Origin: Blasia pusilla | Taxonomy: Eukaryota | Direction: 5' to 3' | Assembly: GCA_050084515.1 (NCBI GenBank) | Contig: CM114271.1 | Span: 8,370,001-8,434,000 of the forward strand | Length of the DNA: 64,000 bases | Part shown: piece by piece, positions 1-43,906 of the stretch | Numbering within the stretch: position 1 is the first letter of the stretch | Layout of the letters: each line of letters begins with the position of its first letter | Notes under the pieces: model-generated | What the model was told of the DNA's origin: nothing | The model's database searches: none | What the model saw: only the letters and a program-made list of their open reading frames with translations | Position numbers and translations under genes: made by a program

Positions 1-73
1 TTTGCACCAGCACTTGGAAAGAATTTCAAGATAGCTTTTTAACAGTCTCGAAGATAAATCTCAGACAACCCAC

Positions 74-3000
74 CTCCCAAACTTGATTTGATGTGTGGAA
101 TCGGTTCACGTTCTCAGCAGAGAATACCCAAGCCACAATTGCCAAATTAGAAACAATGCGAAACCCCATGAGACGATCGATCAAAATTGCTGTCATCTGG
201 GCTGAGTTTCTCCAGAAGACGGCAACAGCTTCAATCATTGCCACCTGCCAAGTATGATTTGAAGCAGCTAGTTTACTTAACACTGTGCCATACCATTCCA
301 GTATTGTCACTGTGTGGGTGAAACTCTTTGATCCAATAAAAAGAAAGGTTTGCACAGCAATCTCAATTGCCATTTTCTGCCCATGGACCGGCAATATCTT
401 CTCCTCGATGTACACTTGAATGTCCCTTGCACTTTTCTTTGCTCGAGTCATTCCTACTAATTCAGTAGCTATAGTCATCTCTGCCTCGGATACTCCTTGT
501 GGATCGGCGTCATATTTATAGTTTGGCCCACTTTTCGGGGGCAGTAGCTCTATCAGCTTGGGACTGCTATGCAAACTCTGTTAATGACCAAGAAAGCAGA
601 CATTTCTGGATTAATACAACATACAGTATGGGCTTGAAGTTGACACATCTCACAGACTAGCGTCAGAAATTGACGAAGGGTCAGACTTCCTCGGCTGAAA
701 TGTCAAATGTAACCCCTACACAAACTTATTCCATCATCAAGCCTTACATCAGATACGACATGCTCTTGTATTGTTGCTTAAGGCAAAGAATTAATCTAGT
801 TGACTGAATCTCAACTTGCAGACAGAAGTGTGAAAACACAAATTGTTGCTAGGCAGTATGCATTAAGATGTCCTGCGTACCTCTCTAATCTTATCCCAAT
901 ATGCCAAGCGCACTTCTTTTTCAAGGACCTCTTGCGCAAAGACCCGCTGTGGTGACCATTTTGGCTGCTCCAAGACATGCGCCCATTCCTCCCACGGCCA
1001 TACAAATTGAAAGTTGGACCTGCACCAAAGGACCCATGCTTACTATGAGGGCCGCAGAATAATACTTCATGAAAATTGAATTTTTAAAAGAAGGAAGGTC
1101 TTACTATTAAGGAGTTAATATGCTCACACTGTGTGCTTAAGATATACCATTCTTAGTGAAGCCCTTAATGTCACCACCTTGATCCCACATGTTAATCAGC
1201 TCAGTGTGGAAGCAAGAAGTACATACAAATGGTGAGATAGCCACTGTACAAGTCGGGTGCGGCACTCCACATCCATATCTCCAACCTTCGCAAAAAGGAT
1301 GCGCACAGCTCCAGCTACAACAGCAGGAAAAGCCCCAGGAAGTGCCTACAAATCTCATAGAATTACACCTTCAGTTCTGGATATATTGCAATACTGGATA
1401 GTAATCAATATGTTCCTACATTTTAAGTTTTTTTTCATACACTGGACATTGGGCACTCATATTTTCTAGTGCTGAACTACAAGATCCAAACACACATGAG
1501 AAATTAGCTCATGACCTGCACGTATACAATGACAAGGGACTCACCTTACAGAGGTCCACCATTACAACGGTGTAGTAAATGAGCTTAAAAGGAGGGGCTG
1601 GAAGGAGCAGTAACTACAAACACAATACAAATACAGTCACCAAATTTAGCTTCAGTTCAATCCTGGCTTCTATGAGAGGCAGTCTGCTGAAGCTAAGAAT
1701 TCTGAAGAAGGGAAACATCCAAGAAACCATGTCTGGCATTTTAACAAGGCAGAAAAACTTGTGTCAATAACTGCAGCTGCCTTTCCAATTGTTCACATCT
1801 ATAGATAAAGTACTCCACAGAGATGATAATGCCCTTGAAACTCGATGAGTGTCAAGGATTAAGGGCAAGATCTTGAGAGTGAAATTTTAAAGAAGAGACC
1901 AGAAATACGATAGAGCCTATATTGTTCCCTCTTCAAAGAAAGATACTTGGCATAATCTGCTTTAACTGCATTAGAAGTTATCCAATGAACTCCAAGCCTT
2001 CAAAACTAACAGCAGAGCATATTTACAATCACATTCAAGCTTAATAAGTATCATGGGTGAAAGCAATTTCTTCAAATGAAAGTCACTCCACCCCTCATTA
2101 ATTAAGGTTTTGTGGCAAGCAAGGAACTGCACCTGAGTATATTTAGCCTGACATTGATTGGATGAAAGTGATTGTGATGTCAAAAGGATTTGAAAAGAAA
2201 TCACCTTTCAGGGTATGATGGGCCTTGGGCTGCAGTCTATGATGCAAAGAGAAAATGAAGAGAAAAACGTGACATCAAGAACAACTCGTGTTGGAATTTC
2301 TCCAAGTACATACCATATTTTTGCTTAAAGAGACTGTAGATCTCACCTGTGAAAAAACAGTCTCCGCCATGAGATACTCGTATCGGAATGGGACTGGAAG
2401 GCCCACCATGTACGCAGCACATTCTTTACGACTACATAATGCAACAAGCAGTGGAGAAAATATGTCAAGCCACTAGAGAAGTCGCTGTTGAGCCCAACCA
2501 GGCTGCTCAACACCCAACAGAGCATAACTCATTACCACAGAGCTTCCAAAGACTTTCAGCAGCATAATCAAAATTCTTGACTGAACATGTGGAAAAATAA
2601 TCCAAGACATGGTATGTCAGCTTACCAGCCATTTAGAAAACATAGGACATCCAATAGATACTCTTCCACAACAAAACGGTCGATTGGTGCTATTTTCTAT
2701 TACAGTCGACAAAGAATTTGTGAGTAGAATTGCACTAAGAATTGACCATTAGACAAGGCCTCTTCTAATATAAAAAGTGGACATTATTGTAGTACAAAAA
2801 CTATGACAACACCAAACCAGATTCACATATTCCACTGAAACATACATCCTGAAAGAAACCATACTACACACCTCATCAGTCTTAGCAGATGGAAATATAA
2901 TAAGTCGACCCACTCTCCGAGGGTACAACTGTTCTGCCTCTTCCCGGTATTTGCCCATCACTATATCAGACGGATTGGGTGGCAGTTTTGGTGCGTCTGG

Positions 3001-9205: not shown

Positions 9206-9340
9206 ATAGCTCCGCCGTCTCATGCCAAGAGGTTCAACAAAGAGAGAATGAGCTCTCAAGCTCTCTCTCTTGGAGGTATACCCCCTTCCCTCTCCCAAAC
9301 TCTCTCCACGGTAACCTATACTTGCACGTCACCTCCTTGG
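9206..9340. repeat. Dispersed repeat fragment (probably LTR-derived), interrupted by the copia element at 9341
   Basis: Aligns with 22731-22864 (atagctccgccg...catgccaagaggttcaacaaagagagaatgagctct...gtcacctccttgg); similarity stops exactly at the copia LTR start. Confidence 0.8.
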
Positions 9341-9652
9341 TATTGAAGATTGAGTTACAGTCAAGCTCTTGAGACACCTAAACTGCTACATTTGGTACTC
9401 ACACAAAGTAGGGGAGCTTAATCTTGGTTAGTCAGTTAAGCGCGATTATCTTAACTATGATTAGTCAATCACAGTTAGTCTAACTCGAGACTATGGTTAA
9501 GATTAGGGTTATGATCGCTTGTACACACCCTATACAATTGAGAAGGGGATCAGCCTCCACTTATTCCGTCATTGCAAATTTCGTTCTCCATGGTGGTGTG
9601 TGAGCGTGAGAGTCGTTTCCTGCCAGTTATGCTTCTTTAGCAATTTTCCACA
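9341..9652 (+). repeat. Copia 5' LTR (copy 1)
   Basis: Homologous to the LTRs at 55239-55553 and 60239-60553; starts TATTGAAG, ends TTCCACA. Confidence 0.92.
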
Positions 9653-12600
9653 CGGTATCAGAGCGATAGGAGAACATCACTTGAATTTCTGGATGTTTGA
9701 GGAGAGAAGAGAGGCAAAAGAAGGAAATTTTTCAATTTGGGAGAAGGAAATTTTATTCAAAGCTAGTGGGTGCACATTTAAGGTGGAGCTTTGACAGTGA
9801 TAACACTTTGGAGACATTTTTAAAGGCTTTCCCGGCCGATTAAGCCATTTGGCAAGAAAAATACCAAAGTTTAGTTTTACTTGCCCTGTAGAGCTCGTCA
9901 AAAGCTTTCCAACGCATCCAAAATCCCTCGATTCTGACATTGTGAACTCCTGCAATAGCAATTTCAGTGTAGGAAAGTGCAATTAGTGAAGAAAAGTTGT
10001 GCAGCTTGCTCTCTACAAGCCAATTTCGACTAATTCTTTCATACAATTAATTAATTTTGGTAAATTTCAGGTCGATTTCTGCATAGGAGTGATCGATGCT
10101 TCAATTGGAGTAGTATAGAGCATAAAATTACGTCTTTGTGAGTGAAATCGCTCGTCATGGAGTATTCCTCAACACCAGTCAAAGGCGAGAAGCTAGATAA
10201 GTAGAATTACAATGTCTAGAAGTTTCGCATGAAAAAAATTCTCATGGGTCAAGAACTATGGGAGCTTGTCACATGTGATGAGGCCAAGCTATAAGGCGAC
10301 TCAACAAACTTGAATGTTCACGCTTGGAACAAACGCGCAAGGCAAGTAATCCACTACATTTTAATAACGATCAGTTTGCCAATGATAGGTCACATCCAAG
10401 ATATTGATACTCCGGAGGAGACGTGGGATGTATTGGAAAAGTTCTTCCAGACATCTACAAAGGCCATAAAGCTTCAATTGAAACAAAAATTGAACGAATT
10501 GAGTAAAGGATCGGAGAGCATCAATGATTATATTTTGAGTATGAGACATATTGTTGATCAGATGAATAGCATTAGAGTGACAGTAGAAGATGATGATATG
10601 ATTTTTTTTCACTCTTCAAGGCCTTCCAAAGGATTACAAGTCCTTTGAGACCTCTATCTCTGTAAGAGAGAAGTATCCAACCTTTCAAGAGTTAGTTCCT
10701 CTATTGATCAGTGAAGAGATGCGCCTAGTAGGCAGCGGTAACTCGTATAGTCTACAAGAGAGTGCGCTATTTGCAAGTTATGGATCAAATAAAGACACGG
10801 GTCCTGCTAGAAACTTCTATGGTCGTGGTGGATATCAAACATATGGAGGAATAGGCACTCAATATAGCGTCACTCAATCAACTACGAACTAGTACCAGAC
10901 ACAATCATAATATGGTGATGGTGGAAACCGTAAGGTTCGAGGTCGGCAACAGAGGGTCCATAGATCTTGCAATTAATGTGTGATAAAGGATCACTATGCA
11001 AAGTTTTGCTTCAAGAAGAAGGCACGTATGAGAACAAGAGTCTTAGAACAACAAAACTATGTGGAACAACAACACCAATAGCAGTACTAAGAACAACAAC
11101 ATTCACAAACAGAGCATCTATTGGTCATAACTCATCATATGGGAGCAATGGTCAAGAAAGACTCGACAACAGATTGGTACATTGATTGTGGTGCATCAAA
11201 TCACATGACCTCACAAGCTCAATGGTTCAATAGTTTTGAGTCGGTGAAAGATCCAGCAATTGTGCTCACGGGAGATGACACTCAACATCATATCACGAAT
11301 ACCGGTAAAGTTCCAATAGCATCAGATGGTCTTTGTGGTTTTGGAAATGTTCTCTATGTTCCTACCATTGCAAGAAAATCTTATCTCTATAAGATAAATA
11401 GTAGAACATGGTTATCAAGTAAAGTTTAACGCATATGGTTTTTTCATTGAAACAATGGATCAGTAGACTACCATAGCCAAAGGAACTAGATCTAGCAGAA
11501 TGTTTAAATTAGATGTTTTTATGCTAGAGATTCAAACAATAATGTATGGTCAAACCGGCCAACAAGTCATAAATCTAAATGTGTGGCATAAAAGAATTGG
11601 ACATATGAATCTTCAAAGATTACAGAGTCTTTCATCATCTAATATAATAATATGACTCCCTAAATTAGCCAGTCTTGCTATGTTAGAGGTCTGTCCTGCT
11701 TGCCAATTTGGAAAACAAGCTAGATTTCATTTTCCAAAGCAAGGTAGAAGAGCATACAAGATTTTGGAGTTGGTCCATAATGATGTGTGGATAGCATCAC
11801 AACATAGTCTTAGTTGTTGCCAGTACTTTGTTTCATTTATTGATGACTTCTCTAGGTATATATGGGTATACTTTTTGAAAGCCAAGTTAGAGGTATTCTC
11901 AGTGTTCCAAACATTTAGAGTTCTAGTAGAGACGCAAATTGGAGAACACATTTTGAAATTACGTTGTGATGGAGGAGGAGAGCATCTTTCAACAGAGTTT
12001 GATGACTATTTACGTCATAATGATATCCAACGTCAAGTGACTTGCCGTTACACTCCACAACAAAATGGAGTGGCTGAGAGGAAGAATCGACATATTGTTG
12101 AAGCGGCACGAGCTATGCTGAATGAGAAAAACATGCCTAAGGTCTATTGGACAGAGGTTGTAGCACGTGAAGTCTTCTTAATAAACCAAACTCCAACAAC
12201 ATGATTTTATGATAAAACTCCATTCGAAGTCTTCATTGGAAGTAAATCTGATTTTTTCTTCTTGAAAGTATTTGGCTGTATTTGTTATGCTCATGTTTAT
12301 TTTAAGAGAAGTCATAAATTACATCGGAAGTCTGAGAGATGTATCTCCATTGGCTATGCTAATGGGACTAAGGGGTAGAAGTGCTACATTCCATCCTCTA
12401 GGCGGCTTACTATTAGTGGCAATGTTATCTTTGATGAGTTAAAGTCATGGTATGCTCCATCTGAGCCTATTTCACCTCTAAACTTGTATGTTGAGGGGGA
12501 GAATATGACTATAAACCAATAGACATTGTCTTCAACTTCCCCAAGTACTTGTGTAGGACTATGAGGGGTCCTAGATTCATCAGTTAAATCTGTGCGTCAA

Positions 12601-14289
12601 TGGACGGGAAGAGTATATATTTAGTCTGTTGACACTAGTGAGAGCTCGAGTCAGGTGTCAGAGGCATCTACCTTTGAACAATAACTTCGTAGATCAAGTA
12701 AAGTTACATATCTAGTTCATAGATTCATAAATGAAGATTTCCTTGCGATCCATCATGCATATATGATGACTAGCCTTCAAGAACAGGAGCCGAGTTATTT
12801 TGAAGAAGGTGCAAGTAAAGTCGAATGGATTGAGGCTATGGGGGAAGAGCTTGCTGCATTAAGACATCAACAGATATGGGAGCTGGTTGATATACCTTCC
12901 GGTAAGGAAGCTATTGGTTGCAAATGGATTTACAAAATCAAGCACAATCAAGATGGTACACTTAACAGATACAAAGCGAGAGTGGTGGCTAAGGGCTATG
13001 CACAACAATATGGCATCGATTATGAGGAAACATTTAGCCTTGTGCAAAGATGGCAACTACGAGAACAGTGGTTGCAGTTGCAGTTAGTAAGAGATGGAGA
13101 TTATATCACATGGACGTCAACAATGCCTTCTTGAATGGAGATCTATACAAGGAGGTATATATGACTCAACCACCTAGATATGAGTATCCTTAGTTTCCAT
13201 TTCGCGTATGTTGGTTGAAAAAAGCTTTATACGGGCTCAAACAAGCTCCAAGAGCTTGCTATGGCAAGATTATATACGTCTTACAAAAGTTGGGTTGTAA
13301 GATATGTGATTCTGACTCCTCGTTATATGTCTTCAAAGGACAAGATCATACGGTTCTCATTGTGTTGTATGTTGATGATCTTTTAATTACTGGGAGTATT
13401 GAAGAAATGGTACAACAAGTCAAACTTAAGTTACAAGTAGAATTTGATATGAAGGACTTCGGAGAGCTCAAGCACTTCCTCAATATTGAGTTTATCAAGG
13501 TTGGAGAGAGCATGTGGTTACTACAACAACAATATGCTTTTCATATGCTTTCAAAATATGGTATGACGACTTATAAGCCAATCTCTATACCGTTGGACCA
13601 GAGTGTGAAGCTTAAGTGGATGAAGGAGAGTTGCTTACAAATTATAATATGTATAGGCGCACGGTTGGAAGTTTGATCTATCTAACTATAACTATACCAA
13701 CTTTTAGTTATGTTGTTGGCCTAATGAGCCAATTTATGTAAGCACCTCGAAAACCTCACCTTGATGTTGTAAGGAGGATTATGTGGAATATGAAATTCTC
13801 TTTTCAATTCGGGCTTCAATTTGAACCTTCTCCGAGTTTTCAATTACAAGGATTCCTAGATGTTAATTAGACTGGAAGCGTGTATGATTGACACTTCCCT
13901 TGTGATTATTCATTTACTTCGGGCCGCGTAACTATAAGTTGGGCTTCAAAATAGCAACCTACTGTTGTTTTGTCTTCAATAGAGATCGAGTACAAAGGAG
14001 CAACCAATGCAACATGTGAGGCGGTGTGGCTTCATCGATTACTTGTTGAGATTGGTGTCAGTAACTTAGGACCTAGTGTAATATATGCAGACAATATTAG
14101 TAGCATCAAATTTGCTAATAACCCTGTGTTTCATGCTCGTACAAAGAATATTGAGATGCACTATCATTTTATCAAAGAGAAAGTGCTTGCGGGAGAAATT
14201 GATATTGTGTATATAGATACAGATCTGCAAATTGCTGACATTTTTACAAAGGTATTGTCGAGAGATAAAATTGAGATATTTAGAAATGA
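9341..14289 (+). mobile_element. Ty1/copia retrotransposon, degenerate, 3' LTR missing (copy 1)
   Basis: 5' LTR 9341-9652, PBS cGGTATCAGAGC (initiator tRNA-Met type) at 9653, gag, protease (WYIDCGASNHMT), integrase (FIDDFSR, YTPQQNGVAERKNR), RT ([17 protein letters not shown]), RNase H (NPVFHARTKNIEMHYHFIKE). Many stops and frameshifts; similarity to copy 2 ends near 14289. Confidence 0.95.
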
Positions 14290-14740
14290 AGAAGAATTTG
14301 GATGCGAGGAATTTGTGCCTTATCATGCTCACGTACGTAGACCAATTCATCCAATGCCTCACAAGTACCACAACATTGTAATGAGTACCATCATGTTTGA
14401 AGACATATTTCCAAAGTCATTGCTAGCTATTGGCAATTTTACCTTCAGCACTATGTTTGGAGAACTCAATAGTATAAAGATAAGATCTCCAAGCCTCTTC
14501 TTAGGCCTTTGGGATATAGCCCTTGCGAACTCCCAAGGGTGAAGACGATGACATGCACACATATGTCACCTAGCTCGCACAACCTGCTACTAACCTAACC
14601 AAGAATTTTAAGAAACCTCCAAGTAGATTCTAAGAAAGTCCAAGAATGGAAACTTTCCCAATCATCCTCCAATTGCATCCCCACATGGGACTCACAAGCC
14701 ACCAAAGGGGAAAGTAAGTCACCACTAGCTTCTTCACTCT

Positions 14741-14935
14741 TGTCGTGCGCATACACATTGTTACACAACATACATCATTGTCAACAAACATACACACAAA
14801 CACGCACGATCCCATGCTAACTCATGGCATCCAAACAACCAGACAAGAAATACCAAAATATCTCCAATCGCCCCCCTAGATGGTGGTTAGATCCCTTTAA
14901 CTCTCGATATCCATCTATCCCTACCTACCATGACA
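14741..14935 (-). repeat. Possible short 3' LTR of the DNMT/PHD gypsy element
   Basis: Bounded by a near-perfect inverted repeat (TGTCGTG ... CATGACA) about 110 bp downstream of the PHD stop. No partner LTR and no convincing PPT seen. Confidence 0.3.
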
Positions 14936-15048
14936 GACATCTCTCAGATGCTAAGAGCAAAAAGGTCGGGTGCTCATCTCGCCCCATCGTTAGTCGACTT
15001 CTTATCATCAATGTCACAGACACAAGTCGGAATCTAGAACTACCTACT

Positions 15049-17573
15049 CTATGTACATCTGTGACACATCCATCCTCCCTCAAGAATCCTAGTGAGAGGT
15101 GGCGTTAGACATTCCATATGCCATCCTCTCGAACATCCATTACAGACAAGCATAATAGCTGCACCACAGGCAGAACCATGCAGCATACACGGCAAGCCTG
15201 CAGGAACTATTGCTAAGCTTGGATCAACTATACCATCAATTTTTGGAAGATGACACGGTGCACAGTTACGCACATGGTCCTTCCAAACCATACCAGCGCG
15301 TCCCCCCAATAAGAGAACACCAGATGGGCAAAATCTCACGCATTCTCAAGATGGTGCACCTGCAGTCACATCCAATGTCGTAGGTGCCGCCTGCTGCAAG
15401 TAGCCATAGTCTCCCTGAGGAAACCTCCGGATAGTAGGTCAATAACCACATCCTCAAATAGTCATATATCTCAATGTATCCCGATGTTGTGCAATCACCA
15501 AGTTCTCAAACGCCATGGGCATTACTCTAAAAAAAAAACTCAATCCTCTGAGAACATGCTTGCATCCATACATCAAGGTCATCAAGGTTCAACACCTCAC
15601 CAACATCTCAACGAATGGCCGCAGGTAAATGTGGCTCTCGACCATAAAGCAGCAAGTACGGTGAGAAAGACGCTAAGGATGATGTTTGCATAATCTGTAT
15701 CCCATTGCCAACCACGGCAACTAAAGGTCCCAATTTTCTAGGTGATCTCTTTGCAAGCCATACTTGCGTAATCCTCTCGTCATCGTCTGTACAACTCTCT
15801 CCGCTAGTCCATCTGCCTCAGGATGATCTGGCGAAGTGGTGCGGTGGTCAATCAGCGCCTGATCACACAAGGCCTAAAACTCCTCGTGAAACTCTGTACC
15901 CTGGTCTGTCAACATCTCAACTGGTGTGTCGTAATGACTCAACACTCAATCTAGAAAGGCATACGCTACTCCCTCACTCATTTTGTCAAGCAATGCAACC
16001 AACTCTATCCACTTCGAGAAGTGCTCGATCATCACCAACACATAACGCCTATGGCGCTCCGTCAAAGGCAAAGATCCTGCAAAATCCAAACTCCATCTAT
16101 AACCTAAACCCATGATCGGAAGTGGATGCAACTGTGGAGTTGGAGTATTAGACGATGCTCGAACTTGATCACACACCATGCACCTAGCAACAAACTACTG
16201 AACGTAAGTCTGCATGCCTCCCCATCAATACTGTATATGGAGCAAGTTGTACGTCCGCTTCATTCCAAAATGACCCAACTCCTCGTGGGCATGACGCACT
16301 AAATGTGATCTCTGCGAAGGATGAGGCACTACACGCACTCTACCATCCTCCCAAACTCGTGACACATATGTCCCCTCCCACCGGAATTGTTTCGCTCACT
16401 GTAGGTTCCGGTCCCGGTCTCTAGCTCCCACTGTGCTCACAACCCTGCCAGTACGTAGGTACTCCAAGACCACTCCATCATCATGAATATCTCAGCCACC
16501 TATCATCTCCTCACCGACCTCTGGAACTGAGGACTCTCCATCAGACCTCGCCATCAAAGTCTCATCAATTTGGCTCTCCATAGACAACAAGCCCAAATAG
16601 GCTGACATGTGCCATCATGGCACCAACTCCTCATCACTCTGACCATGCCAACAAGCTCCACTTGCATCTCGCTAACTCGGGCATAGGTTACGGCTCAAAA
16701 CATCTCCATCATGGTTGAGCATCCTAGGTCTATGCATCACTTGGAAATCATACTCTAGCAACAAAAGAGCCCACCTTGCAAGCTTCCATATAAGCTTGTC
16801 TGACTCCATTAACCACTTAAATGGCTGATGATCAATATTGATGGTAAAGGGGTTGCCGAATAGATAACACCTAAAATGTGTGACAATCCACACCGAAGCC
16901 AAGCACTCACCCTCATACAAGCTATACTTTGTCTCTACAGCGTTGTTCGAGCGACTAGCGTAAGCCACCATAAACTATCTACCATCATTGTCATGATGGG
17001 TGAGCATGGCTCCAAGCCCCAACATGCTTCAATCGATATGCAACTCGAAAGGACGCCCCCTGATCTGTCTCCTCAATATGGGCGCGGACGTCAATGTATC
17101 CTTGAGCATCTGAAATGCTCTCTCCTGCTCATCCCCCCAATGCCACTCTCGATCTACCTTGGTCAGCAAGGTTAGCGGCTTTGCAATCGAATTGAAACCC
17201 TTGAAGTACCGTCGATAGAAGTTTGCCAATCCCATGAAGGCACGAACTCGACTCACATCTGTAGGGCGTGGAATGCGTGAAATATCCTCTACCTTCATCT
17301 GACTATACCCAAGTCCCCTTGGGTATATTGTATGACCTAGGTACTCAATCTGGTCGTAGAAGAACTTGCACTTGCCCGGATGTAGCTTCAACCCATGTAA
17401 CTACAATCGTCGAGATACCTCCTCTTGATGTTGCTCATGCTCCTCAACCGTGGCGCTAAAGACTATGATGTCATCAATATAACACGTAGCAAAATCTAGA
17501 CCCGCCAAGATCCTATCCATGACCCTAGGAAACTCATCCGGGGCGTTCTTTAACCCAAATGGTAAGAACCGCC
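15049..17573 (-). mobile_element. Ty3/gypsy pol 3' half: RT C-terminus, RNase H, integrase, C-terminal PHD finger (DNMT-gypsy copy 1, 3' half)
   Basis: RFLPFGLKNAP...CYIDDIIVF (RT); VAYASRSNN...YEGECLA...LARWALLL (RNase H); HEELGHFG...CMVC and WSLDFAG...IEHFSKW (integrase); MLVCNGCSRGWHMECLTPPLTRILEGGWMCHRC (PHD, ORF 15049-15339). Confidence 0.9.
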
Positions 17574-18845
17574 CTCACGGTTCATTAGACAAGAGAAATC
17601 GATCGTGATCCCCCGCAACTCGGTTACCTCCAAAAGGGAAAGCGAGATGAGGTGCCTTTCCAACCAATCGCATTCCCCAACGGGTTGCCGAAGGAAATCC
17701 ATGCGAGATCTCATGGATCCCGACTCCAATCACACACGTCACAACCCGCAGGGGGTACCTACTGACAACTGCGTTCAACCCAACGGACTCTGACGGGTTG
17801 CAAGTTGCAATTGGAAGATGATACCATGCGTCTGAGTCCCAAAATTTGCAACCCGTTGGACTACGACAGGTTGCAACACGATTGAATACATTCCGTCATA
17901 CAATCTCACCTACTAAACAACATCTTGTCAGTCATATTTTGTCAGGAGAATAACGGTCACTATTCACTATAAATTAAGCATTCTCAATCTCATTCCTATT
18001 CTTATTCTTATTCTTATTCTCCACTCGGTGGAATAATCTGGGAATGGATAATTATGTGAAACTCACTCGTGGCAGTCATCTAGCGACTCTTCCTCAATCA
18101 TAAATAATTCGACCGCAAGCTCGTGAGTCTTACATACCAATGGATGAAAAATTCCTCTTGGTGCAATTTCTTCTCCAAATTGGAAGAATCTTTGTTTCCA
18201 AGGATGTTAGGGTGGACGGTACGGAGGACGTTGTAGGTGAGAAAGTCTAGCCAATGATAGCAGATTGTAAAGTATGGAATCTCCTACCTCTAAAAAATGG
18301 TCAATACATGGCTTGTCTCTGAATTCCTCTATTTCCCAAGTAGACAGTCCGAAATTTCCTATATCACCGAGCTTTACGTTTGCCACTCCCAGCTCAGTAG
18401 ATCTAGCATCGACTCCAACTTCACTCGTTCGTAATAATGTTGTACTTCTTGAAGACATTCCGGATGTCATCAACCTCATTGGATCTGTCGGACATCAACC
18501 AGGCCCTCTGTCTGCCTACTCGTTCCTCTTGCGAGTATCCATAAATAGTTTGTTGTCGTCTCTGCCCTTTAAAATATTCAAGCACATTCTTGTTGAAAAA
18601 ATGCCGCCCACGTACGATGGTAATTGCATTTTTGAGTTGCCTCCACCTGCGGGTCTTGCTCAAAAGAAAGATGGAGGACGCTTGAAGGGTATGGATAGAA
18701 AGTCTAATTGTCATCGATGGTGCAGACTTCAACGGACTAGTGCTTCAATTCCAGATGGTCCTTAGATTGTTTCTCGCCGCCAATGCGTTGGAGCCTTGGA
18801 GTGTAGAAGTCTAGGCATCCCGTATCTAGAGCGTAATGGGTGAGT
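17574..18845 (+). other. Unclassified repeat-derived segment with clustered CAACCCG/CGGGTTG motifs and a Cys/Trp-motif ORF fragment (18274-18765)
   Basis: Several CAACCCG/CGGGTTG-like motifs in both orientations at about 17678-17872 and a (TATTCT)n run near 18000; ORF contains PPTYDGNCIFELPP...GMDRKSNCHRW and after a stop continues CVGALECRSLGIPYL. Looks like a DNA-transposon fragment; family not recognised. Confidence 0.35.
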
Positions 18846-18849
18846 CAAT

Positions 18850-21621
18850 ATGTTGCAAGTTGGAGTTTATGCATCACGTTTAGATGTGATGGACTTGCCC
18901 TTGGAGCTTATGCTCGGGCCGTCCACGTCAGATTCATGGCAAGCTGCGGCTGCTAGGATGGCGGAGATGCTCGCCAGACCCGCGATAGAGCGTGCCATGG
19001 CTTCTCCCGGTGTTGTGTTGCTAGATAATTAGGGAGAGGTCTTCCAGTTGGTAAGTCCAAGAGGTTGAGCTTGTAGTCTGCAGCGCGTCTTGTTGGATTC
19101 AGGAGCGCAACCTTGATGTTAGGGAAAGCGACATTTAGAGGTTTGGGCCTCATAAGGGCCGATGTGGAGAGTTATCCATTCCGGATACAGACATCCTTTG
19201 GTGGAGCGAGTACCACACAATATATCATCCAACATGAGGTCGTGGTGAGGATTCGCTCGGGACATCCTTCAGATAAGTCCGTGGTGCGAGCTAAGGCGAT
19301 AATGACCGATGTAGAGTCCTACGACGTCTTGGTTGGTGGACCAATATTGTACCTCATGGGGTTTTTCCTGGATTATTAGGAGGAGTCAGCATCCTAGAAA
19401 TGATGATGGTAGTTAGGTGATGGGCGCCTCAGGTCATTACCCGTTCGATTCACTAGTGTAGTGATCGAGCGCCGACCAAGAGAGATGGTGATCTTAGTAG
19501 CATTTAGCAATGCCATCACTTGGCACAGTGATTTGACTAAGGGACATGTCCATATAGAGGACACTCTCGTTCGTGATATTTCTATGGAGAGGAGTGTCAT
19601 GGTAGCCGCATCAATCCGTGGAGGAGAGGTGCCATGTTGGGGCTTGACTGAGGAGCTTTGATGCTTAGCCAGTGAGCATGTGCAGACCGCGTGGAGTGAG
19701 ACGTTTGCTCAAGAGTGTGATGGGTCAGATGAACCTAAGGTAGTCAAAAGTGCTACTATGACCCCTTTGGACACCGCCTCGATTGTGTGGTGCATTCCAG
19801 AGAAGGGTATTTGCATGTTGGATCTCTTTGGAGGGATCAGCACTGGCATAGTTGATGCTAGAGTGCGCGTGCAGAAGTTCCTGTATGTGAAGGTTGATTA
19901 TGTTGCAAGGCGCGCTTCACTTCACCATGTGGCGCAGTTATGCCTCCGCTTTCCCGACTTGTCTGCGTCCGCCATCCAGGGTTACTAGAGTTCCCTACTG
20001 AGGGATATTTCATTGTTGGGGGCACAGGACTTAGAGCAGGTAGGGACCATAGACTTGGTCATTGCTGGTTGGTCGTGTTAAGGCCAATCGAGTGTTGGAT
20101 GAGGTAGCGGATTAGCTGACACTCGGTCCAAGTTGTTTTGGGAGATGATGCGGATTTTGCGACCCTTGCAAGAGCATCAGTCCCGTTCTCTAGCATACAT
20201 TATGGAGAATGTGCCGATCTTGGGAGATTTGAGATCACAGGTAGTGACGAGTGCACATCAGGTGCATGCATGGAATGGCTCAGCAATGTTTTTGGATGCG
20301 GTGAATGTAGGTTCTAGAGCACACCGTTCGCATCTTTGGTGGACTAACTTGGTGCCACACGAGGTATTGCGGAGGGCATATGCGCAAGTGGAGCGCCCCT
20401 CTTAGTTGTTGGTGGATTCCATATTGGATTCGGGCCGTCGATTACAGGCAGTGAGGCACGATGATCGACCGCCGTTGATTGTGGTCAACAGGATTGGCAT
20501 GCCACAAGCAACCTTTCTCACATTGGTGAGTTTTCCCGCTTCCTATGCACTCAAGGAGGCCGGACTTGGCTTGGTTTGGGATGACCAGGTACAACGGTTG
20601 GTGGAGCCCAACGCCGATGAGCGAGAGCAAGCGATGGGATTTCCCATAGGAGTGACGGTAGTACCGTCACTATCAGAGGCATCACGACATCATGTCTAGG
20701 GTCAGGCGATGGACCTAAACTGCTTGACATGGATTTTCAGCTTAGGAGTAGATGAGCAACATTGTTTGAGGATGTGACAGATCACAGTTGTTGCGTTGGT
20801 AAGCCCTATGCCTATCGAGACAGTTGAGGCAGTGGCTGGGGGCGAGACCCGATGAGATCGACACACCAGGGGTGATCGTGAGAGACATCCTTGGACTTTT
20901 TGGGATATTTTGCAAGTACGCCGGGAGATGGTAGCCACACTGTCGAGCGTGGTTTCGGGTACTGCACATGGAGATCATATTTTGAGTTGGATGTAGGAGA
21001 GCAATCGAGTTCTGTTGTCCGAGATGGGGTTGCATTATAGCAACCACCTACACCCGGGCCGGAGAGTCCTACCGTAGTGACGATGGAGACTTGGGAGCTA
21101 GATATGGGCCCTAAGTTGACAGGAGGAGAGCGGTGCCGGATACACAAGTTCCTTAAGAGTTGTAGGAGCTGCTTTGCATTTAGTATGCATGACTTGGATA
21201 CGCTGAAGGGTCCAGGGATCCGCATTGAGTTGTTTAGTGATACGCCAATCTTCCGACAACCCTACAAGTACAGTGACATGGAAAGGGCTCTGATTCAGAG
21301 TAGGAGCCAGGACTTGGTTGGAGCAAGACTAGTTGAGATGTTGCATGGAGAGTATGTATCTGCCACTAGTATGCCCGCCAAGAAGGATGTGCATGGCAAT
21401 TGGACAGATAGGCAGATGTGTGGAGATTACCAACCTATCAATCAACAAAAGAAGTCCGATAGGTATGCCATGCCCACCCCTGACGAGATCTTTGATGTTA
21501 TTGGGCATGCAAAGGTCTTCAGTCCGTTAAAACTTCAAGCCGGATATCATCAGCTGCCTATCAGATTGGAGGACAGGCAGAAGACAACATTATGGGGCAT
21601 CAATCCTCGCGGGAAGGATTG
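18850..21621 (+). mobile_element. Ty3/gypsy pol 5' half: aspartic protease, C5-cytosine DNA methyltransferase, RT N-terminus (DNMT-gypsy copy 1, 5' half, inverted)
   Basis: VLLDSGAQP protease motif at about 19087-19113; ORF pieces 19113, 19461, 19680, 20133 and 20406 share one frame; RT at 21077-21621 (PIFRQPYKYS...MCGDYQPIN...DRYAMPTPDEIF...LQAGYHQLPI). Confidence 0.9.
19809..20750 (+). pseudogene. DNMT3-like C5-cytosine methyltransferase catalytic domain inside the retrotransposon polyprotein (stop-disrupted)
   Basis: Motifs in canonical order: I LDLFGGISTG, II LYVKVD, III DI, IV IDLVIAGWSC*GQS (copy 2 has GWPC), VI YIMENV, VIII AHRSHLWWTN, IX EREQAMGFP, X RHHV*GQAMD. Motifs VIII-X resemble DNMT3 (AHRARYFWGN, ERVFGFP, RQRLLGRSW). 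Confidence 0.9.
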
Positions 21622-22267
21622 CGGCCACGAGCGGCATGGCACGGCAATCGGCAGCGCATTGCAACTACGGGCATCACGGAAGGGTACTCGATCATCGTCG
21701 AGCGGCTACCAATCACAACGGCTACCAATCACACCATAACCGGAGTCCATCTGCCGTAATTGTTTGACGATGAAACTTCAATGACGGTGGCGGCCAAAAC
21801 AAAGTACATAGTGACTACACTAGTCTAGGAATCAACGAACGTCGTGGAAGACCCTCCACTCTGTAATGGCAGCAATGGCAACCAAAGGGTGGACAACGGC
21901 CGAATGCGGCTCTAACCAACCCTGGGCAAGAGCAACGGTCGACGGTGACTGGTGGACGGTGGACCGTTGACGATGAAGGTTGACCATTCACGGTGATAGT
22001 TGACCATTGACCAATGACGGCGACGATCGCCGCCGGCATGGCGGCTGGTTTAGGGTTTGAACAATTTAACCCTAAAAATCGCCTAGCAACGGCAGTTTTG
22101 CAAGATTGAGCATAACTTTTTCTTCACAACTCCAAACTGTGTATTGTTTGTTGCATAACTTGCACAGCTTTACGATCTACAACAAAATTAAAAAATATTT
22201 GGAATTGGACATCCCAGTAAAAACTGATGGGGATTGTCGTAAAGCCCAATGTCTCTTTCTCCTACAC

Positions 22268-22730: not shown

Positions 22731-22864
22731 ATAGCTCCGCCGCTTCATGCCAAGAGGTTCAACAAAGAGAGAATGAGCTCTAAAACTCTCTCTCCTTGAA
22801 GTATACCCCTCCCCTCTCCCAAGCTCTCTCCATGGTAACCTATTCTCCCAAGTCACCTCCTTGG
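22731..22864. repeat. Dispersed repeat fragment, second copy
   Basis: Homologous to 9206-9340; embedded in CT-rich LTR-like sequence. Confidence 0.8.
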
Positions 22865-33273: not shown

Positions 33274-36058
33274 TCTGTCAAGCGAACAGAGTCTTCTATG
33301 CAAAGAAGCAAGGCTTACTTATGATAGTTGATCGGTTTAGCAAGTTAGGGAGGTTTGTGCCGACGAGAGATTCTACGACGGCCTATACGACTTCGCGATT
33401 GTTCCTGGATAGCTGGTGGCGAGCTTATGGATTGCCTAGGAGCATTGTTTCCAATTGCGATCTGAAGTTTACTAGTGCCTTTTGGAAACATCTATTTAGG
33501 AGGTTCAAGACCAAACTCAACTTTAGTATGGCCTTCCATCCTCAAACGGTTGGGCAAACGGAAAAAGTAAACTCAATCGTGAACCAATACTTAAGGAATT
33601 ACGTGAGTGTGGACCAACGAGATTGGGCAAAGTGGCTAAGTATGGTTGAGTATTGTTACAACTCCACCAAGCATTCTACAACTAAAGAATCTCCGTTTCT
33701 TCTGACTTATCAAAGAGAAAAAGGAGGGCCTGTTGACTTGCCCCTTCGAGGGGAGCTACACTGACACACACTCCTAAAGCAACGGAGGAATGTTTGTCAG
33801 TGGAAATGCAGGAACGAAAAGAGCGGGCGAGAAGAAGTCTTGCCAAGGCTCAACTAAGGTACGTGAAGCATGCTAATAAGAGTCAGCGCCAAGAGAGTTT
33901 CCAAGTTGGGGAACAAATGTGGTTGAGTCTAAGGAATCTCACTCTTTCGAAGGAATTTTCTGCAAATTTTTCAACCAAGTATGTGATCAAGGCGCAAAGC
34001 CATTTGAGGACGTGTATACATTGGAGCTACCAAACGAGTTCAAGATTCACCCATCTTTCCATGTGTCATTATTGAAGAAATGTCTTCAAGACAATGTGCG
34101 TCCGGAGCTAAGAATTGTGTTGAGGCCACAACTGGTCATCAGAAATGAGGAACCAGAGTTTGTGGTAGAGACCGTTACGCCTTCCAGATATAAAGCCACG
34201 AAGTACGAGTACTTGGTCAAGTGGAAAGGCTACCATGTGAAAGAGGCGACTTGGATTGCGGAGGAAGATCTTGAACACACGCAAGAGACATTACGATACT
34301 TCAAATGGATGCAAGATAGGTGTATACGTTAGTGCATGATGAGGCAATGGACATAACTTGTGAGCATGAACCTTGGGCTCATAACCCGCCGTAACTAGAA
34401 AAGTTTAGTTGTTGCAATAAAGAATACACGGAGTTGGAGATTCGAAGCTAGTGATTTTGATTTTGAGAATGGTAGTGCATGGCAATTAGTAGTTCTTCAT
34501 ATGCTTATGATGTAGGTCAAAGAGGAAAAACAATGAGTATTTGAGGTAAGATTTTATTTGGATAAGGCATCTAGATCAAGACCAAATGTTGAAGTACTAA
34601 CATTTGGGCCCGCCCTAACGTCGGCGGGGCAAATTTTTTCATCTTAGGGTTTATGGTGATCTCATTCATGACGCATGAGTGAACTTAGTGACGTGCCCAA
34701 GTAGAATATGAGTGACCCAAAAGAAGTACGAATTGGCTAGGTAAACAAGCGGTTGTTTACAAATAGTGAGTAAATGAAGTGTTAGGTTGCAGACTTAGTT
34801 AGCTTATTTTGATAGTTTAGATTAGTTCTGCAGAATTAATCTAGGTTGATTGAAGTGGAGAAGCTAACAAATCTAAGTGCTATAAGAAACAGCCTAAGAC
34901 TTAAGCCAAAAGAGGAATTGCGGATAAGCTACCAGAACGCGATTTAGTGTTAAGGGGGCAGCTTCCAAGAACTTAACATTAAAAAAGGTTTGCATTGATG
35001 AGGACATCAACCTTCTAAGGAGGGGTGAGCGTCGTGACCCTCGTAACCAAACGAACACCAAATATGTGCCAAGCGGAACATCGAAACTCTAGTGGACTCA
35101 TGCTACGATGATCGCGTTTTGGAAAGGCTTTTGGAAAAGTCTCTTGGAAAAGTCCAAGAGACAAAACGCGGAACAGAGTTGTGCATTTCATGAGTTTTTG
35201 GTCTCAATCAGGCAACCTAGACCAAACGTGAGCCAAGACTTGACATGAGTTTAGTCTAGGAAGGTTGGTTTCCAAAGAGGTGAGAACTAGTTTTGGAACA
35301 CGACTAGCGTTTTGGGATTTTGAATGTGTTCTGGACCATAACGTTTAGTAACAAGATGCATACGGGACACATAAGGGCGCGTTGGAAAGCTTATTCCAAG
35401 ATGCTTCCAATGTACCAAAGATCTTAGCAAACTCATAAGTACGGACTGAGATATTTGCCAAAAAAATTTGTGAGAGCAATCGGATTGAGGGCCAATCTGA
35501 GGGGCTCGACTATCTTTCCCTAAAGTTAGGGGGAGGGTGGGGATCACCAAAAGTACTAGTAAGGAGGAGTCTCTCCAAGGAGTCTTGGAACACAAACCCC
35601 ACTTTAAGCACCAAACAGCCCCTCAAGTGCACATAATGGAATGGGAGTTTGGCTTTGGAACTCGAAACCCAAACTTGATCTAAGGGAGTGGACTTCGTAA
35701 GCCACACTTGGATTCCAACCCCTGATTTATTTTCATGACTCATGGCTAGGAACTCATTAGATTTCCATTGGACATTTGGAACTTCTAGGCATTCAAATGC
35801 CGTTGGAGGTTCTTGAACTGACCAGAAATTTTGTCCCAAGTCTTCAAAGACTTGCCTGTGTTGTAAATCGCAAAACTAGGAAGGTTGATCTTGATGAGAG
35901 GCCGAGTCGAGAACTTGGCAAGTTAGAACTGCTAATTGATCTAGACCTGACTAATGTAAGTGCGTGTTTGGTGCAGATCAATGTTGAGAGCGTGTCCTAC
36001 TGAACGCACGCTTCCGCAACAACAAAGATTAATGTTCAAGGAGAGTAGGTGCACGACA
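33274..36058 (+). mobile_element. Chromovirus (Ty3/gypsy) 3' portion: integrase, chromodomain, PPT, 3' LTR (35030-36058)
   Basis: IVDRFSK...AFHPQTVGQTEKVN (integrase), IHPSFHVSLLK, EFVVET...EYLVKWKGY...TWIAEEDL (chromodomain), PPT AAGGAGGGGTGAG, LTR cGTCGTG...CACGACA homologous to 47927-48954. Confidence 0.92.
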
Positions 36059-38157
36059 ACATCCCATGATCGATCTTCTCAATATGGGTGTAGATGTCAA
36101 CCTATCCTTTAAGAAATTCAAATGCTCTCTCTTGCTCATCCCTCGAGTGCCACTTGTGATCCACCTTGGTCGGCAAGGTTAGCGGCTTCGCAATCAAACT
36201 GAAACCCTTGACATACCGTCGATAGAAGTTTGCCAATCCCATGAATGCAAGAACTCGACTCATATCTCTACGGCATGGAATACGGGAAATAGCCCCTATC
36301 TTTGTCTGTTGTACACCAAGGCCACTTGGGTATATCGTATGACCCAAGTACTCAATCTCGTCATAAAAGAACTTGCACTTGTATGGATGGAACTTCAGCC
36401 CATGTAACTGCAATCGTAAAAAAACCTCCTCCAAATGTCGCTCATGCTCCTCAATCATGGCGCTAAAGACTACCATGTCATCAATACAACACCTAGAAAT
36501 ATCCAAACCTGCCAAGATCCTATCCATGACCCTTTGCAACTCTGTTGGGGCATTCTTTAATCCAAATGGTAAGAACCACCAATGGCAAAAAGAATCCTTC
36601 CCATGAGGATCGATATCCCAAAATGTCATTTTCTACATGTCCTCCAATCTGATAGGCAGTTGATGGTATCAAGCTTGAAGATCCAACAAACTAAAGACCT
36701 TTGCATGTCCAATAACATCAAAGATTACCTCAGAAGTGGGCATGGCATACCTACAGGACTTTGTCAACCAATTAATAGGTTGGTAATCTCCACACATCCG
36801 CCTATCCGTCCAGCTGCCATGCACATCCTTCTTGGCGGGCATGACAATGGCACATGCACACTCTCCATAGAACTCTCCACTACTCTTGCTCCAACCAAGT
36901 CCTAGATCCTACTCTGAATCAGAGCCCTCTCCATATCACTATACCTGTACGGTCGTCTGAAGATTGACGTATCACTAGACAAGTCAATGCAGATCCCTAG
37001 AACCTTCAACGTACCCAAATTATGCACGTTAAATGCAAAACAACTCCTATGACTCTTAAGGAACTGATGTATCCAACGCAACTCTCCTCTTGTCAACTTA
37101 GGGCCCATATCTGGCTCCCAAGTCTCCATCGTACTATGGTAGGATTATCAGGCATGGGTATGGGTGGTTACTATGGTGCAATCCTATCTCAAACAACAGA
37201 ACTCAAGTGCTCCCTTATAGCAAACTCCAAACTCTCATCTCCTCCAAAGATCTGGCGTACCTACATTACATCCCAATAAGTCCAAGGATGTCTTTCTTGA
37301 TCATCCTTGCTATGTCGATCTCCTTGGGTCTCGCCCCCAGCCATTGCTTCAACCATTTCGGCAAGCATGGGCTTACCAATGCAACGTCTAGGACTTGTTG
37401 CAACCTCATCTGATGTTGCTGAGCTACTCCTAAGCTAATAATCCATGTAAGGCAATTTAGATCCATTGCTTGATCCAAGACATGACGTCATGATGCCTCT
37501 GATAGTGATGGTACTGTAGTCACTCATGTGGGAAGTCCCATCGCTATGCAGGGTCATCCCAAACCAAGAAAGGACCGTCCTCCTTGTATGCATAGGAAGC
37601 AGGAAAACTCACAAACATGGAAAAGGCTGCGTGTGGCATGCCAATCCTGTTGACCACAATCAACGACTGTCGATCATCATGCCTCACTGCTTGTGATCGA
37701 TGATTGGGATCCATAATAGAATCCACCTACAAATGGGAGGGGCGCTCCACTCTTACATACGCCCTCCATAACACCTTGTGTGGCACCAAGTTGGGCCACT
37801 ATAGACGCGGGCCATGTGCTCATGAACCTACACTCGCCGCATCCAAAAACACTATTGGTCTAATCCATACGCGCACCTATGTGCACTTGTCACCACCCGT
37901 GACCTCGAATTGCCCAAAAAATAGGTACATTCTCAACGAACATGAGTTATTCTCCTGCAAGTGTCGAAAGATCCTCATCATCTCCCAAAACAACTTGAAC
38001 TGAGTGTTAGCCAACTCGCTTCCGCGTCCATCACTTGACTAACATGGCCAACCAGCAATGACCAAATCAATGGTCCCTCCCCGCTCCAAGTCCTACACCC
38101 CAACAATGAAATATCCTTTCCTAGGGAACTCTGGTACCTTGTACGGCTGACGTAGGC
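36059..38157 (-). mobile_element. DNMT-gypsy copy 2: methyltransferase motifs III-X running into RT
   Basis: Collinear with 19960-21621 plus 17050-17573: IDLVIAGWPC (GWPC at 38053-38042), LFWEMMRI, QAVRHDDR...VVNRIGMP, QAMDLNCLTWI, METWEPDMGPKLT, then RT unbroken across GKDSFCHWWFLPFGLKNAP...CCIDDMVVF. Confidence 0.92.
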
Positions 38158-43384: not shown

Positions 43385-43830
43385 GTGAGTAATCTTTATT
43401 CCAGGGGATGGATGTGGTCGAGGTTGGCTTTTTATAAAGATATTTGGTCTCCTTCACCTGAGCTCTATTTCAACAACCTGCAGGGCCTTCCTGTCATCTT
43501 CATGCGCGGTACTCGTTTACGGCGTCTTGTCTTCGCCTGGCTTTATATCCAGAGCGATCCGTTACTTGAGCTTATTCTGTCCTCTTTTGTCGATATGATT
43601 GGACTGATATTCTGGCTGTGAATTCCGACAACTCGACCAACGGCGGAGTCTTGCTTGCACCGCAGGTGTGCCCGGCAGGGGAAGGGTGCTGCTACGTTCG
43701 GCGGAAATATCTAAGCTTGTGTTTGCAAGATCCTTTCAGGTCTGTTTTATCATTGTTCGTCGCTGATCGATAAACCAGTGTGGATGTTGTTAACGATTTC
43801 ATTCGTGGGGATCCTGATTTGAATGCTTAG
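43385..43830 (+). other. Probable 5' UTR introns of the MTI-MTK gene (43385-43665 and 43740-43830)
   Basis: GAG|GTGAGT donor at 43385 with ...GCACCGCAG acceptor at 43665; CAG|GTCTGT at 43740 with CTGAT branch-like site and ...GCTTAG at 43830. This would place the ATG at 43823 inside an intron. Confidence 0.45.
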
Positions 43831-43906
43831 GCTGTGGCCAGTAGAATTCTGTGAGAATGTCCCTCTGAAAGTGATGAAGTCGAGATCAGGAGCACCAGAC
43901 AGTAGG

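Follow-up and report, generated by a model that had tools for sequence, protein, structure and literature searches.

A decayed pol gene in Blasia pusilla with a PHD finger at the end of its integrase, from a Ty3/gypsy element of the Gypsy-DNMT3 kind

Organization of the rearranged element

The stretch of DNA analyzed here (hereafter, the window) comprises 64,000 nucleotides of the Blasia pusilla genome (GenBank assembly GCA_050084515.1, contig CM114271.1, positions 8,370,001 to 8,434,000 of the forward strand). It contains a decayed retrotransposon pol frame whose integrase ends in a PHD finger, and next to it, on the opposite strand, a DNMT3-like cytosine methylase. The minus-strand frame from 17649 to 15052 encodes the C-terminal part of a reverse transcriptase (RT), ribonuclease H (RNase H), an Integrase_H2C2 domain, the rve catalytic core, and the PHD finger, followed by a TAG codon, with zero frameshifts along the way. 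Pfam domain searches of this frame were run on its read-through translation (P0001), in which each stop is written as X; two further resources used throughout are an intact relative (P0017) and an alignment of 25 family tails (A1). The features of the element, and of a second copy in the window (copy 2), are as follows, with the evidence for each in brackets:

15049-15051, minus strand: stop codon TAG that ends the pol frame, right after the PHD finger (sequence, translation)
15055-15189, minus strand: PHD finger, from first to last zinc ligand (PF00628, PDB matches from 6e-11, alignment A1, structural model, Foldseek)
15190-15315, minus strand: linker after the integrase SH3-like part, holding the motif N-C-A-P-C-H at 15250-15264 (alignment A1)
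15820-16101, minus strand: integrase catalytic core rve, with in-frame stops (PF00665, E 3.7e-12, P0001 residues 517-610)
16156-16320, minus strand: integrase zinc-binding domain H2C2 (PF17921, E 5.1e-13, P0001 residues 444-498)
16750-17139, minus strand: RNase H of the RT-RNase H type (PF17917 and PF17919, E ~1e-28, P0001 residues 171-300)
17326-17574, minus strand: C-terminal part of the RT, beginning at the inversion breakpoint (PF00078, E 1.7e-18, profile positions 116-205 only)
17574-21631, plus strand: inverted 5' segment with upstream region, putative protease, methylase, and N-terminal part of the RT (mapping of P0017; copy 2 contiguous there)
19090-19107, plus strand: L-L-D-S-G-A motif, tentatively an aspartic protease (seen by eye in the translation)
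19734-20780, plus strand: DNMT3-like C5 cytosine methylase, decayed (PDB matches, PF00145, alignment)
21041-21631, plus strand: N-terminal part of the RT, up to the second breakpoint (match to P0017 residues 442-631 by tblastn; blastn to copy 2)
36060-38155, minus strand: copy 2, a truncated family member with methylase and RT contiguous, cut at ~36058, without integrase or PHD finger (self-blast, translation, tblastn)

The initial annotation of this locus stated that the integrase ends in a PHD finger instead of a chromodomain, and this holds. The interval 15049-16320 extends exactly from the start of the integrase zinc-binding domain to the stop codon; the motif quoted in that annotation is present, and a single residue separates the last PHD ligand from the TAG. 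In the stop-free open reading frame (ORF) at 15052-15345 (minus strand), PF00628 is matched with an E value of 2.8e-7 and 30.9 bits, above the Pfam cut-off of 24, and the match stays significant after correction for the 238 ORFs included in the scan; on P0001, the same domain scores 27.7 bits. No Chromo match was obtained by Pfam in this tail ORF, where the PHD finger stands instead, and the element thus falls outside the chromoviruses, which are recognized by a chromodomain at their integrase's C-terminal end.

The PHD-integrase copy in the window is a pseudogene and is now inert. Its frame is interrupted by 18 in-frame stops (11 TGA and 7 TAG), and the finger itself has seven of the eight canonical ligands, ligand 2 being a His where the relatives have a Cys; because of this change and the 18 stops, the window PHD is filed as a decayed member of its family. 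At three further positions that are otherwise conserved, this copy has N in place of D (93% of relatives), L in place of P (97%), and H in place of P (76%). A transition-only origin of the stops (i.e., pure deamination) was also considered and is unsupported: at these positions the relatives have W, R, or Q clearly at 7 and E, G, or L at 4, with the rest ambiguous. In the linker motif N-C-A-P-C-H, C21 is invariant, and P20 and H22 are found in at least 90% of the 25 sequences of A1. This motif, located between the SH3-like part of the integrase and the finger, may constitute a further metal site.

The methylase on the plus strand has decayed as well: it contains stops, and its catalytic Pro-Cys motif is replaced in the alignment by Ser-Cys and then a stop. 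The closest solved structures are DNMT3A (3.1e-8), DNMT3B, and DNMT3C, with the bacterial HhaI at just 0.04, and PF00145 is matched with an E value of 2.8e-8 (34 bits, cut-off 22). The methylase part of P0017, used as a query, returned only 6 proteins, none of them named.

The relationship between the two halves is provided by P0017, which is a single ORF of 1516 residues with methylase, RT, RNase H, integrase, and PHD finger. When mapped onto the window by tblastn, residues 1-364 fall on 19809-20891 (plus), residues 442-631 on 21080-21631 (plus), and residues 633-1513 on 17571-15055 (minus). The two window halves are thus colinear with P0017 and abut at its residues 631/633, at one point inside the RT, such that one inversion of 17574-21631 restores a single minus-strand element. 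By this colinearity, the DNMT3-like methylase and the PHD-integrase are assigned to the same element, through the inversion. The initial annotation had already attributed both to one element; that attribution is borne out by the match of P0017 to both halves, and holds only if the segment 17574-21631 is inverted. The continuity of frame between integrase and finger, also asserted there, is evident both in the window, which has no frameshift, and in P0017, which is one ORF through the PHD finger. The feature by which Gypsy-DNMT3 elements are recognized, a Gypsy pol whose coding region includes a C5 methylase of the DNMT3 type, is therefore found here from the PDB matches, PF00145, and the colinearity with P0017.

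Both breakpoints of the inversion lie inside the RT, at 17573/17574 and at ~21621-21631, and ~12 nucleotides (nt) are missing at the joint by comparison with copy 2. In self-blast, copy 2 (38155-36060, minus strand) is 76-82% identical to the first copy and is unbroken across the RT breakpoint; the integrase-PHD part was found once in the window by tblastn. The 3' part of another Gypsy element abuts copy 2 at ~36058. Genomic reads carrying the same species label neither confirm nor reject the inverted junction at 17573/17574. Three of these reads connect 17573 with 21621 across opposite strands, as in the uninverted form, and 209 diverge from the window beyond 17573; a conserved 31-nt stretch of the RT attracts reads of many families.

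Once the inversion is undone, the order of domains in pol is protease, RT, RNase H, and integrase, which is that of Ty3/gypsy elements, with the protease placed by its eye-spotted motif alone. Neither the putative protease region nor the N-terminal part of the RT, each taken alone, had a Pfam match. No long terminal repeats (LTRs) of the element were found by repeat finding and sensitive self-blast over the 64-kb window, the search yielding only an unrelated 135-nt repeat (9206-9340 and 22731-22864), and the gag part of the related protein P0115 had no match in the window at an E value of 1e-4. The window element is almost certainly a dead, rearranged Ty3/gypsy LTR retrotransposon of the Gypsy-DNMT3 kind, a family in which the PHD finger is an ordinary C-terminal module of the integrase.

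Conservation of the finger and pairing with the methylase

Protein searches with the integrase-PHD part of P0001 recovered 112 relatives of similar length and 78 longer proteins. By precomputed domain annotation, PF00628 is present in 75 of the former and 66 of the latter, and a strict C4HC3 pattern follows the integrase in 139 of the 190, or in 142 of 193 with three added proteins. All ligand columns of A1 are invariant or at least 90% conserved, and the eight C4HC3 ligands are therefore kept in the family at their canonical spacing. Where the pattern is missing, the protein is in most cases a truncated model or a distant match, and one PHD-less subclade is also without it. The named relatives include the liverworts Calypogeia, Riccia, and Marchantia, as well as Sphagnum, Klebsormidium, and Closterium; among chlorophytes, they include Chromochloris, Tetrabaena, Pleodorina, and Astrephomene.

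A metagenome scan with a single protein returned nothing, and a scan with an alignment returned 80 related loci. The PHD finger is present in 40 of these, and 23 have methylase, RT, RNase H, integrase, and PHD in this order. Most of the metagenome copies are decayed like that of the window, with short ORFs and, in 26 of the 32 loci listed, broken PHD ligands; long ORFs through the PHD finger are kept in L003 and L042 only. Flanking direct repeats of ~210-310 nt, starting 244-406 nt after the PHD finger, are present in 6 of the 18 related loci examined, which indicates that the family is made up of ordinary LTR elements of roughly 9-10 kb.

These counts bear on whether the PHD finger is foreign to the element, either as a chance motif, as a host exon picked up by this copy alone, or through misassembly. 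Such an origin could be entertained in view of the rearrangement of the element in the window and of the reads that did not settle the inversion. The Pfam E value of 2.8e-7 speaks against such an origin, however, and the same in-frame tail follows the integrase in relatives from many sources and in the metagenome loci with PHD, so that a foreign origin is already contradicted by the family data and can be given practically no credence. Absence of the finger from other copies, or loss of its frame or of its ligands there, had been set beforehand as the outcome that would overturn the initial annotation; what the 142 proteins display is a finger in frame with the integrase and with its ligands in place.

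A local search with the methylase regions of five intact members, two of which included some flanking linker, identified a methylase-homologous region in 88 of the 193 relatives, and 78 of these 88 have the PHD finger too. Similarly, among the 22 metagenome loci that have the PHD finger and at least 2000 nt upstream of the RT, the methylase is present in 20 and absent from L002 and L028.

Two architectures of pol were distinguished. Type A, to which the window element belongs and whose named members are streptophytes, has the order protease, methylase, RT, RNase H, integrase, and PHD, and then ends, with at most 19 residues after the finger (at most 14 in the main clade). Type B, whose named members are chlorophytes, has the order RT, RNase H, methylase, integrase, and PHD, usually followed by 100-500 residues; in the chlorophyte-type relatives (P0117, P0152, P0123, P0139, and others), the methylase is thus found between RNase H and integrase, not before the RT. 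The methylases of the two types align over their full length and have common motifs, and the existence of two positions may mean that the methylase moved within pol or was captured a second time. The linker motif N-C-A-P-C-H and the PHD finger are common to both architectures in A1, which argues for a single old acquisition. An unrooted integrase tree (FastTree), built from the 162 of 194 sequences with at least 70% integrase coverage (distant matches fell below this filter), separates types A and B, and a PHD-less, methylase-bearing subclade is nested in type A. In three proteins of the volvocine clade, P0119 (Pleodorina), P0166 (Astrephomene), and P0116, the PHD finger is kept and the methylase-like region is without the catalytic Cys context and the E-N-V motif; this region looks like an inactive relic.

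The chlorophyte-type relatives include 63 post-PHD tails of at least 250 residues, which have a conserved block in common. Motifs like those of adenine methylases, namely an S-adenosylmethionine site D-P-F-x-G-x-G and a catalytic site S-P-P-F, occur in 8 of the 63 tails, and PF02086 is matched below threshold in 4 of 11 whole chlorophyte-type proteins (P0070, 0.0027; P0144, 0.0031; P0149, 0.0035; P0139, 0.37). These sub-threshold matches and motifs weakly suggest a Dam-like identity for the tails.

One interpretation of the pairing is that the PHD finger serves the element's own methylase: by sensing histone H3 unmethylated at lysine 4 (H3K4me0), like the ADD domain of cellular DNMT3, it would guide or permit methylation at the new copy or nearby, and would not determine the insertion site. 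The frequency with which the two modules occur together, both in the protein relatives and in the suitable metagenome loci, is in keeping with such a role, and in type B the methylase lies directly upstream of the integrase, where methylase and PHD finger could share one mature protein; the H3K4me0-type likeness of the finger, discussed below, would also fit the logic of ADD domains. In type A, however, RT, RNase H, and integrase stand between methylase and PHD finger, and polyprotein processing would normally part them. Moreover, methylase-only and PHD-only members both exist, the three volvocine-clade proteins keep the finger together with degenerate methylase motifs, and the PDB searches identify a single canonical PHD finger, not one of the ADD type. 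We consider service to the methylase unlikely on the whole; it would be weaker for type A, and more plausible for type B with its contiguous methylase, integrase, and PHD. The coupling of reader and writer proposed in the initial annotation is upheld as a recurrent pairing. In the architecture of the window element, where the methylase stands between protease and RT and at a distance from the PHD finger, direct ADD-like control of the methylase is the less likely of the two options given in that annotation.

Type of finger and its proposed role

The solved fingers closest in sequence to the window PHD are those of PHF12 (6.2e-11), KAT6A, DPF3, PHF21A, CHD4, KDM5, AIRE, ATXR5, BAZ2A/B, and UHRF1. 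With a profile of the 25 family tails, the best PDB match is CHD4 (5.3e-24), followed by KMT2C/D, PHF12, KDM5, DPF2/3, ATXR5, WSTF, KAT6A/B, BAZ2, and PHF21A, and no finger of the ING, BPTF, or TAF3 type is among the best 60 matches of either search. An AlphaFold model has a mean pLDDT of 63.4, with 76-84 in the PHD part (the first 34 residues, below 50, were left out of interpretation). In Foldseek, the PHD part of the model superposes at 1.2-1.6 Å over 45-48 residues on DPF3, MOZ, and BHC80, placing it within the PHD fold, and in the same range on ORC1b and BAZ2A, in entries titled as complexes with unmodified H3.

PHD fingers that read H3 trimethylated at lysine 4 (H3K4me3) generally need an aromatic cage, at positions before the ligand His and between ligands 2 and 3. 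Among the relatives, the residue two before the ligand His is Gly in 90%, and acidic residues are common between ligands 2 and 3, where there is no conserved aromatic; under this rule, the family finger appears to be without the cage. Most of the closest-matching PHD proteins presumably read the H3 tail unmethylated at K4, the subclass of the matched fingers being assigned partly from entry titles (ORC1b, BAZ2A, and UHRF1 with unmodified H3). By this likeness, an H3K4me0-type reader is the best-supported reading of the family finger.

The best overall explanation, and one that we regard as probable, is that the window holds a dead copy of the Gypsy-DNMT3 kind, in whose live relatives the integrase PHD docks on H3K4-unmethylated chromatin. 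The docking of the integrase on H3K4-unmethylated nucleosomes, judged as a separate claim, is evenly balanced. In live members, the PHD finger would anchor the integrase, as part of the pre-integration complex, to nucleosomes with an H3 tail that has no methyl group at K4, and new insertions would consequently tend to avoid active promoters, in a PHD counterpart of the chromodomain targeting of chromoviruses to H3K9me. The methylase would have a role apart from this, with the new DNA copy or the DNA around it as its target. The role of the finger is proposed because of its position at the end of the integrase, its likely H3K4me0 subclass, and the precedent from Chlamydomonas described below.

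The finger may instead be something other than a histone reader, that is, a zinc module for a host protein, for nucleic acid, or for assembly of the integrase complex, with its resemblance to H3 readers owed to common descent. Several of the closest solved fingers do have non-histone peptides as ligands or belong to large assemblies (UHRF1 with PAF15, UHRF1 with Stella, and PHF12 in the SIN3B complex, by entry titles), and a conserved Cys/His linker motif with no known role adjoins the finger. Yet the family has kept, in its entirety, the surface-forming pattern of H3-tail-reading fingers, and the best structural matches are mostly histone-peptide complexes; a non-histone module is, in our estimation, quite improbable.

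Several observations weigh against the proposed docking on H3K4-unmethylated chromatin. The copy in the window is itself a pseudogene with an altered ligand and three altered conserved residues. The methylase is kept without the PHD finger in the nested type-A subclade (P0179, P0180, P0182, P0185, and P0186), and the PHD finger is found without a detectable methylase in the metagenome loci L002 and L028 and in proteins P0124 and P0150; the existence of members with either module alone indicates that the two are separable. The H3 specificity attributed to the family finger derives from likeness to solved fingers, and fingers of the same subclass bind other partners, as the UHRF1 entries with PAF15 and with Stella illustrate. 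Finally, no RNA reads of at least 95% likeness fall on 15041-15763, the region that holds the PHD finger, and the rest of the element is sparsely covered.

The RNA reads come from three runs with the same species label. They are sparse and mostly 95-99% alike, and at this level of likeness they probably originate from other copies. They fall on the integrase core (16005-16245) and on 18897-21547, and, provided that the libraries follow the usual stranded protocol, the strand of the first mates fits sense transcripts on both halves. Additionally, a transcriptome assembly is the source of one complete ORF among the relatives, P0004.

The wider pattern, i.e., the pairing of PHD finger and methylase across the green lineage with two positions of the methylase, is a more interesting lead than the window copy. 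It is possible, although in our judgment less than probable, that the methylase and the PHD finger at the integrase end form an old, conserved reader-writer module of a Gypsy clade extending from chlorophytes to bryophytes, with one acquisition of the PHD finger and the methylase at two places in pol. In type B, the methylase, integrase, and PHD finger would perhaps make up one mature protein with a Dam-like C-terminal region, and the elements would choose H3K4-unmethylated chromatin and write their own methylation there.

Genomic surroundings and known systems

The window, which is eukaryotic DNA, is crowded with decayed retrotransposons. Two Copia copies, at 9341-14295 and at 55239-60554 (plus strand), are 88% identical; the latter has 316-nt LTRs that are 93% alike, and the former, which is without its 3' LTR, lies next to the PHD element on that element's 3' side. 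Just downstream of the PHD stop, at 14800-15040, the genomic depth is ~130 per strand class, vs. 2-6 elsewhere, and RNA reads are found there too, in what is a high-copy repeat. A chromovirus integrase tail (SH3_Tf2-1 and Chromo, E 2.3e-11) lies at 33880-34329 (plus strand), and PHD-tailed and chromodomain-tailed Gypsy elements thus coexist in this genome. Within the nest of transposable elements, there is also an uninterrupted ORF of 848 residues (43823-46366, plus strand), intron-less and host-like, that encodes a methylthioribose-1-phosphate isomerase (IF-2B, E 7.6e-71) fused to a methylthioribose-kinase-like APH domain; in a protein atlas, this fused family is mostly from Chlorophyta. An ORF at 29-580 (minus strand) has a MIF4G_like_2 domain (E 1.2e-27) and is probably an exon of a cap-binding-complex gene.

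PHD-bearing Gypsy elements of Chlamydomonas and the Gypsy-DNMT3 of Klebsormidium are both already published, and the window element belongs to a known kind. The idea of the initial annotation accordingly loses some of its novelty, in light of the accounts of a PHD finger in green-algal Gypsy elements (PMC9940879) and of Gypsy-DNMT3 (PMC5890265). The latter describes, in its text, KnitGypsy-Dnmt3 of Klebsormidium nitens, a Gypsy element whose pol contains a DNMT3-like methylase (de Mendoza et al., 2018), which is later cited in the text of 10.64898/2026.05.21.726589 as the Gypsy-DNMT3 of streptophytes; Gypsy-DNMT3 elements are also mentioned in the text of PMC12344493. In our unrooted tree, the Klebsormidium proteins P0016 and P0077, which both end in a PHD finger, fall in the integrase clade of the window, and neither ORF has a methylase; no Klebsormidium protein with both modules was found among the relatives recovered by protein searches. 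KnitGypsy-Dnmt3 differs in that it is described in PMC5890265 as having a DIRS-like arrangement of repeats, whereas plain direct repeats are seen in the 6 of 18 related loci and no repeats of the element in the window. A PHD finger goes unmentioned for Gypsy-DNMT3 in the running text and three supplement files of PMC5890265 and in the texts, as distinct from the figures, of 10.64898/2026.05.21.726589 and PMC12344493, and full-text literature searches returned no paper stating a pairing of PHD and DNMT3.

PHD fingers in retrotransposons, including the Gypsy polyproteins of Chlamydomonas, are covered in the texts of PMC6673714, PMC8557442, PMC9940879, and 10.1101/2021.11.30.470311. The text of PMC9940879 reports that Gypsy-7a_cRei of Chlamydomonas reinhardtii (15.4 kb) is active, with a PHD finger in its Gag-Pol and a 2.6-fold excess of intergenic insertions over expectation, and refers to REM1 (Perez-Alegre et al., 2005) on the occurrence of PHD fingers in transposable elements of Chlamydomonas. 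Like the window element, Gypsy-7a_cRei has a green-lineage Gypsy polyprotein with a PHD finger, which in that account is thought to limit harmful insertions, and the volvocine genera Tetrabaena, Pleodorina, and Astrephomene are represented in the family of the window. The chlorophyte architecture differs, with a methylase-like region between RNase H and integrase and 100-500 residues after the PHD finger, whereas in the window the methylase precedes the RT and the PHD finger comes last; for Gypsy-7a_cRei itself, the text of PMC9940879 names no methylase.

According to the text of one review (PMC6338049), land plants have no transposons that encode DNA methylases. The window element shows that land-plant-type genomes, too, have been reached, at least in fossil form, by Gypsy elements that carry a DNMT3-like methylase of their own, and its relatives show that the integrases of DNMT3-bearing Gypsy elements regularly carry a PHD reader. 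If the finger does read H3K4me0, then a mobile element would join both halves of the cellular DNMT3 logic, reading unmethylated H3K4 and writing 5-methylcytosine, and would offer a tractable natural case of a parasite that copies the epigenetic targeting of its host.

The EpiLTRs and DAM-LTR elements (bioRxiv 10.64898/2026.05.21.726589) are likewise retrotransposons in which DNA methylases and a chromatin reader are combined; they differ from the window element in having chromodomains and adenine methylases, and the text of that preprint names no PHD finger for them. Chromoviruses are Ty3/gypsy elements whose integrase has a chromodomain at its C-terminus (Gao et al., 2008, as cited in the text of PMC6673714). 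The window element resembles them in that its integrase terminates in a module for reading histones, which presumably biases integration, and it differs in the reader and its likely mark, which are a PHD finger and the unmodified H3 tail here, vs. a chromodomain and H3K9 methylation in the chromoviruses.

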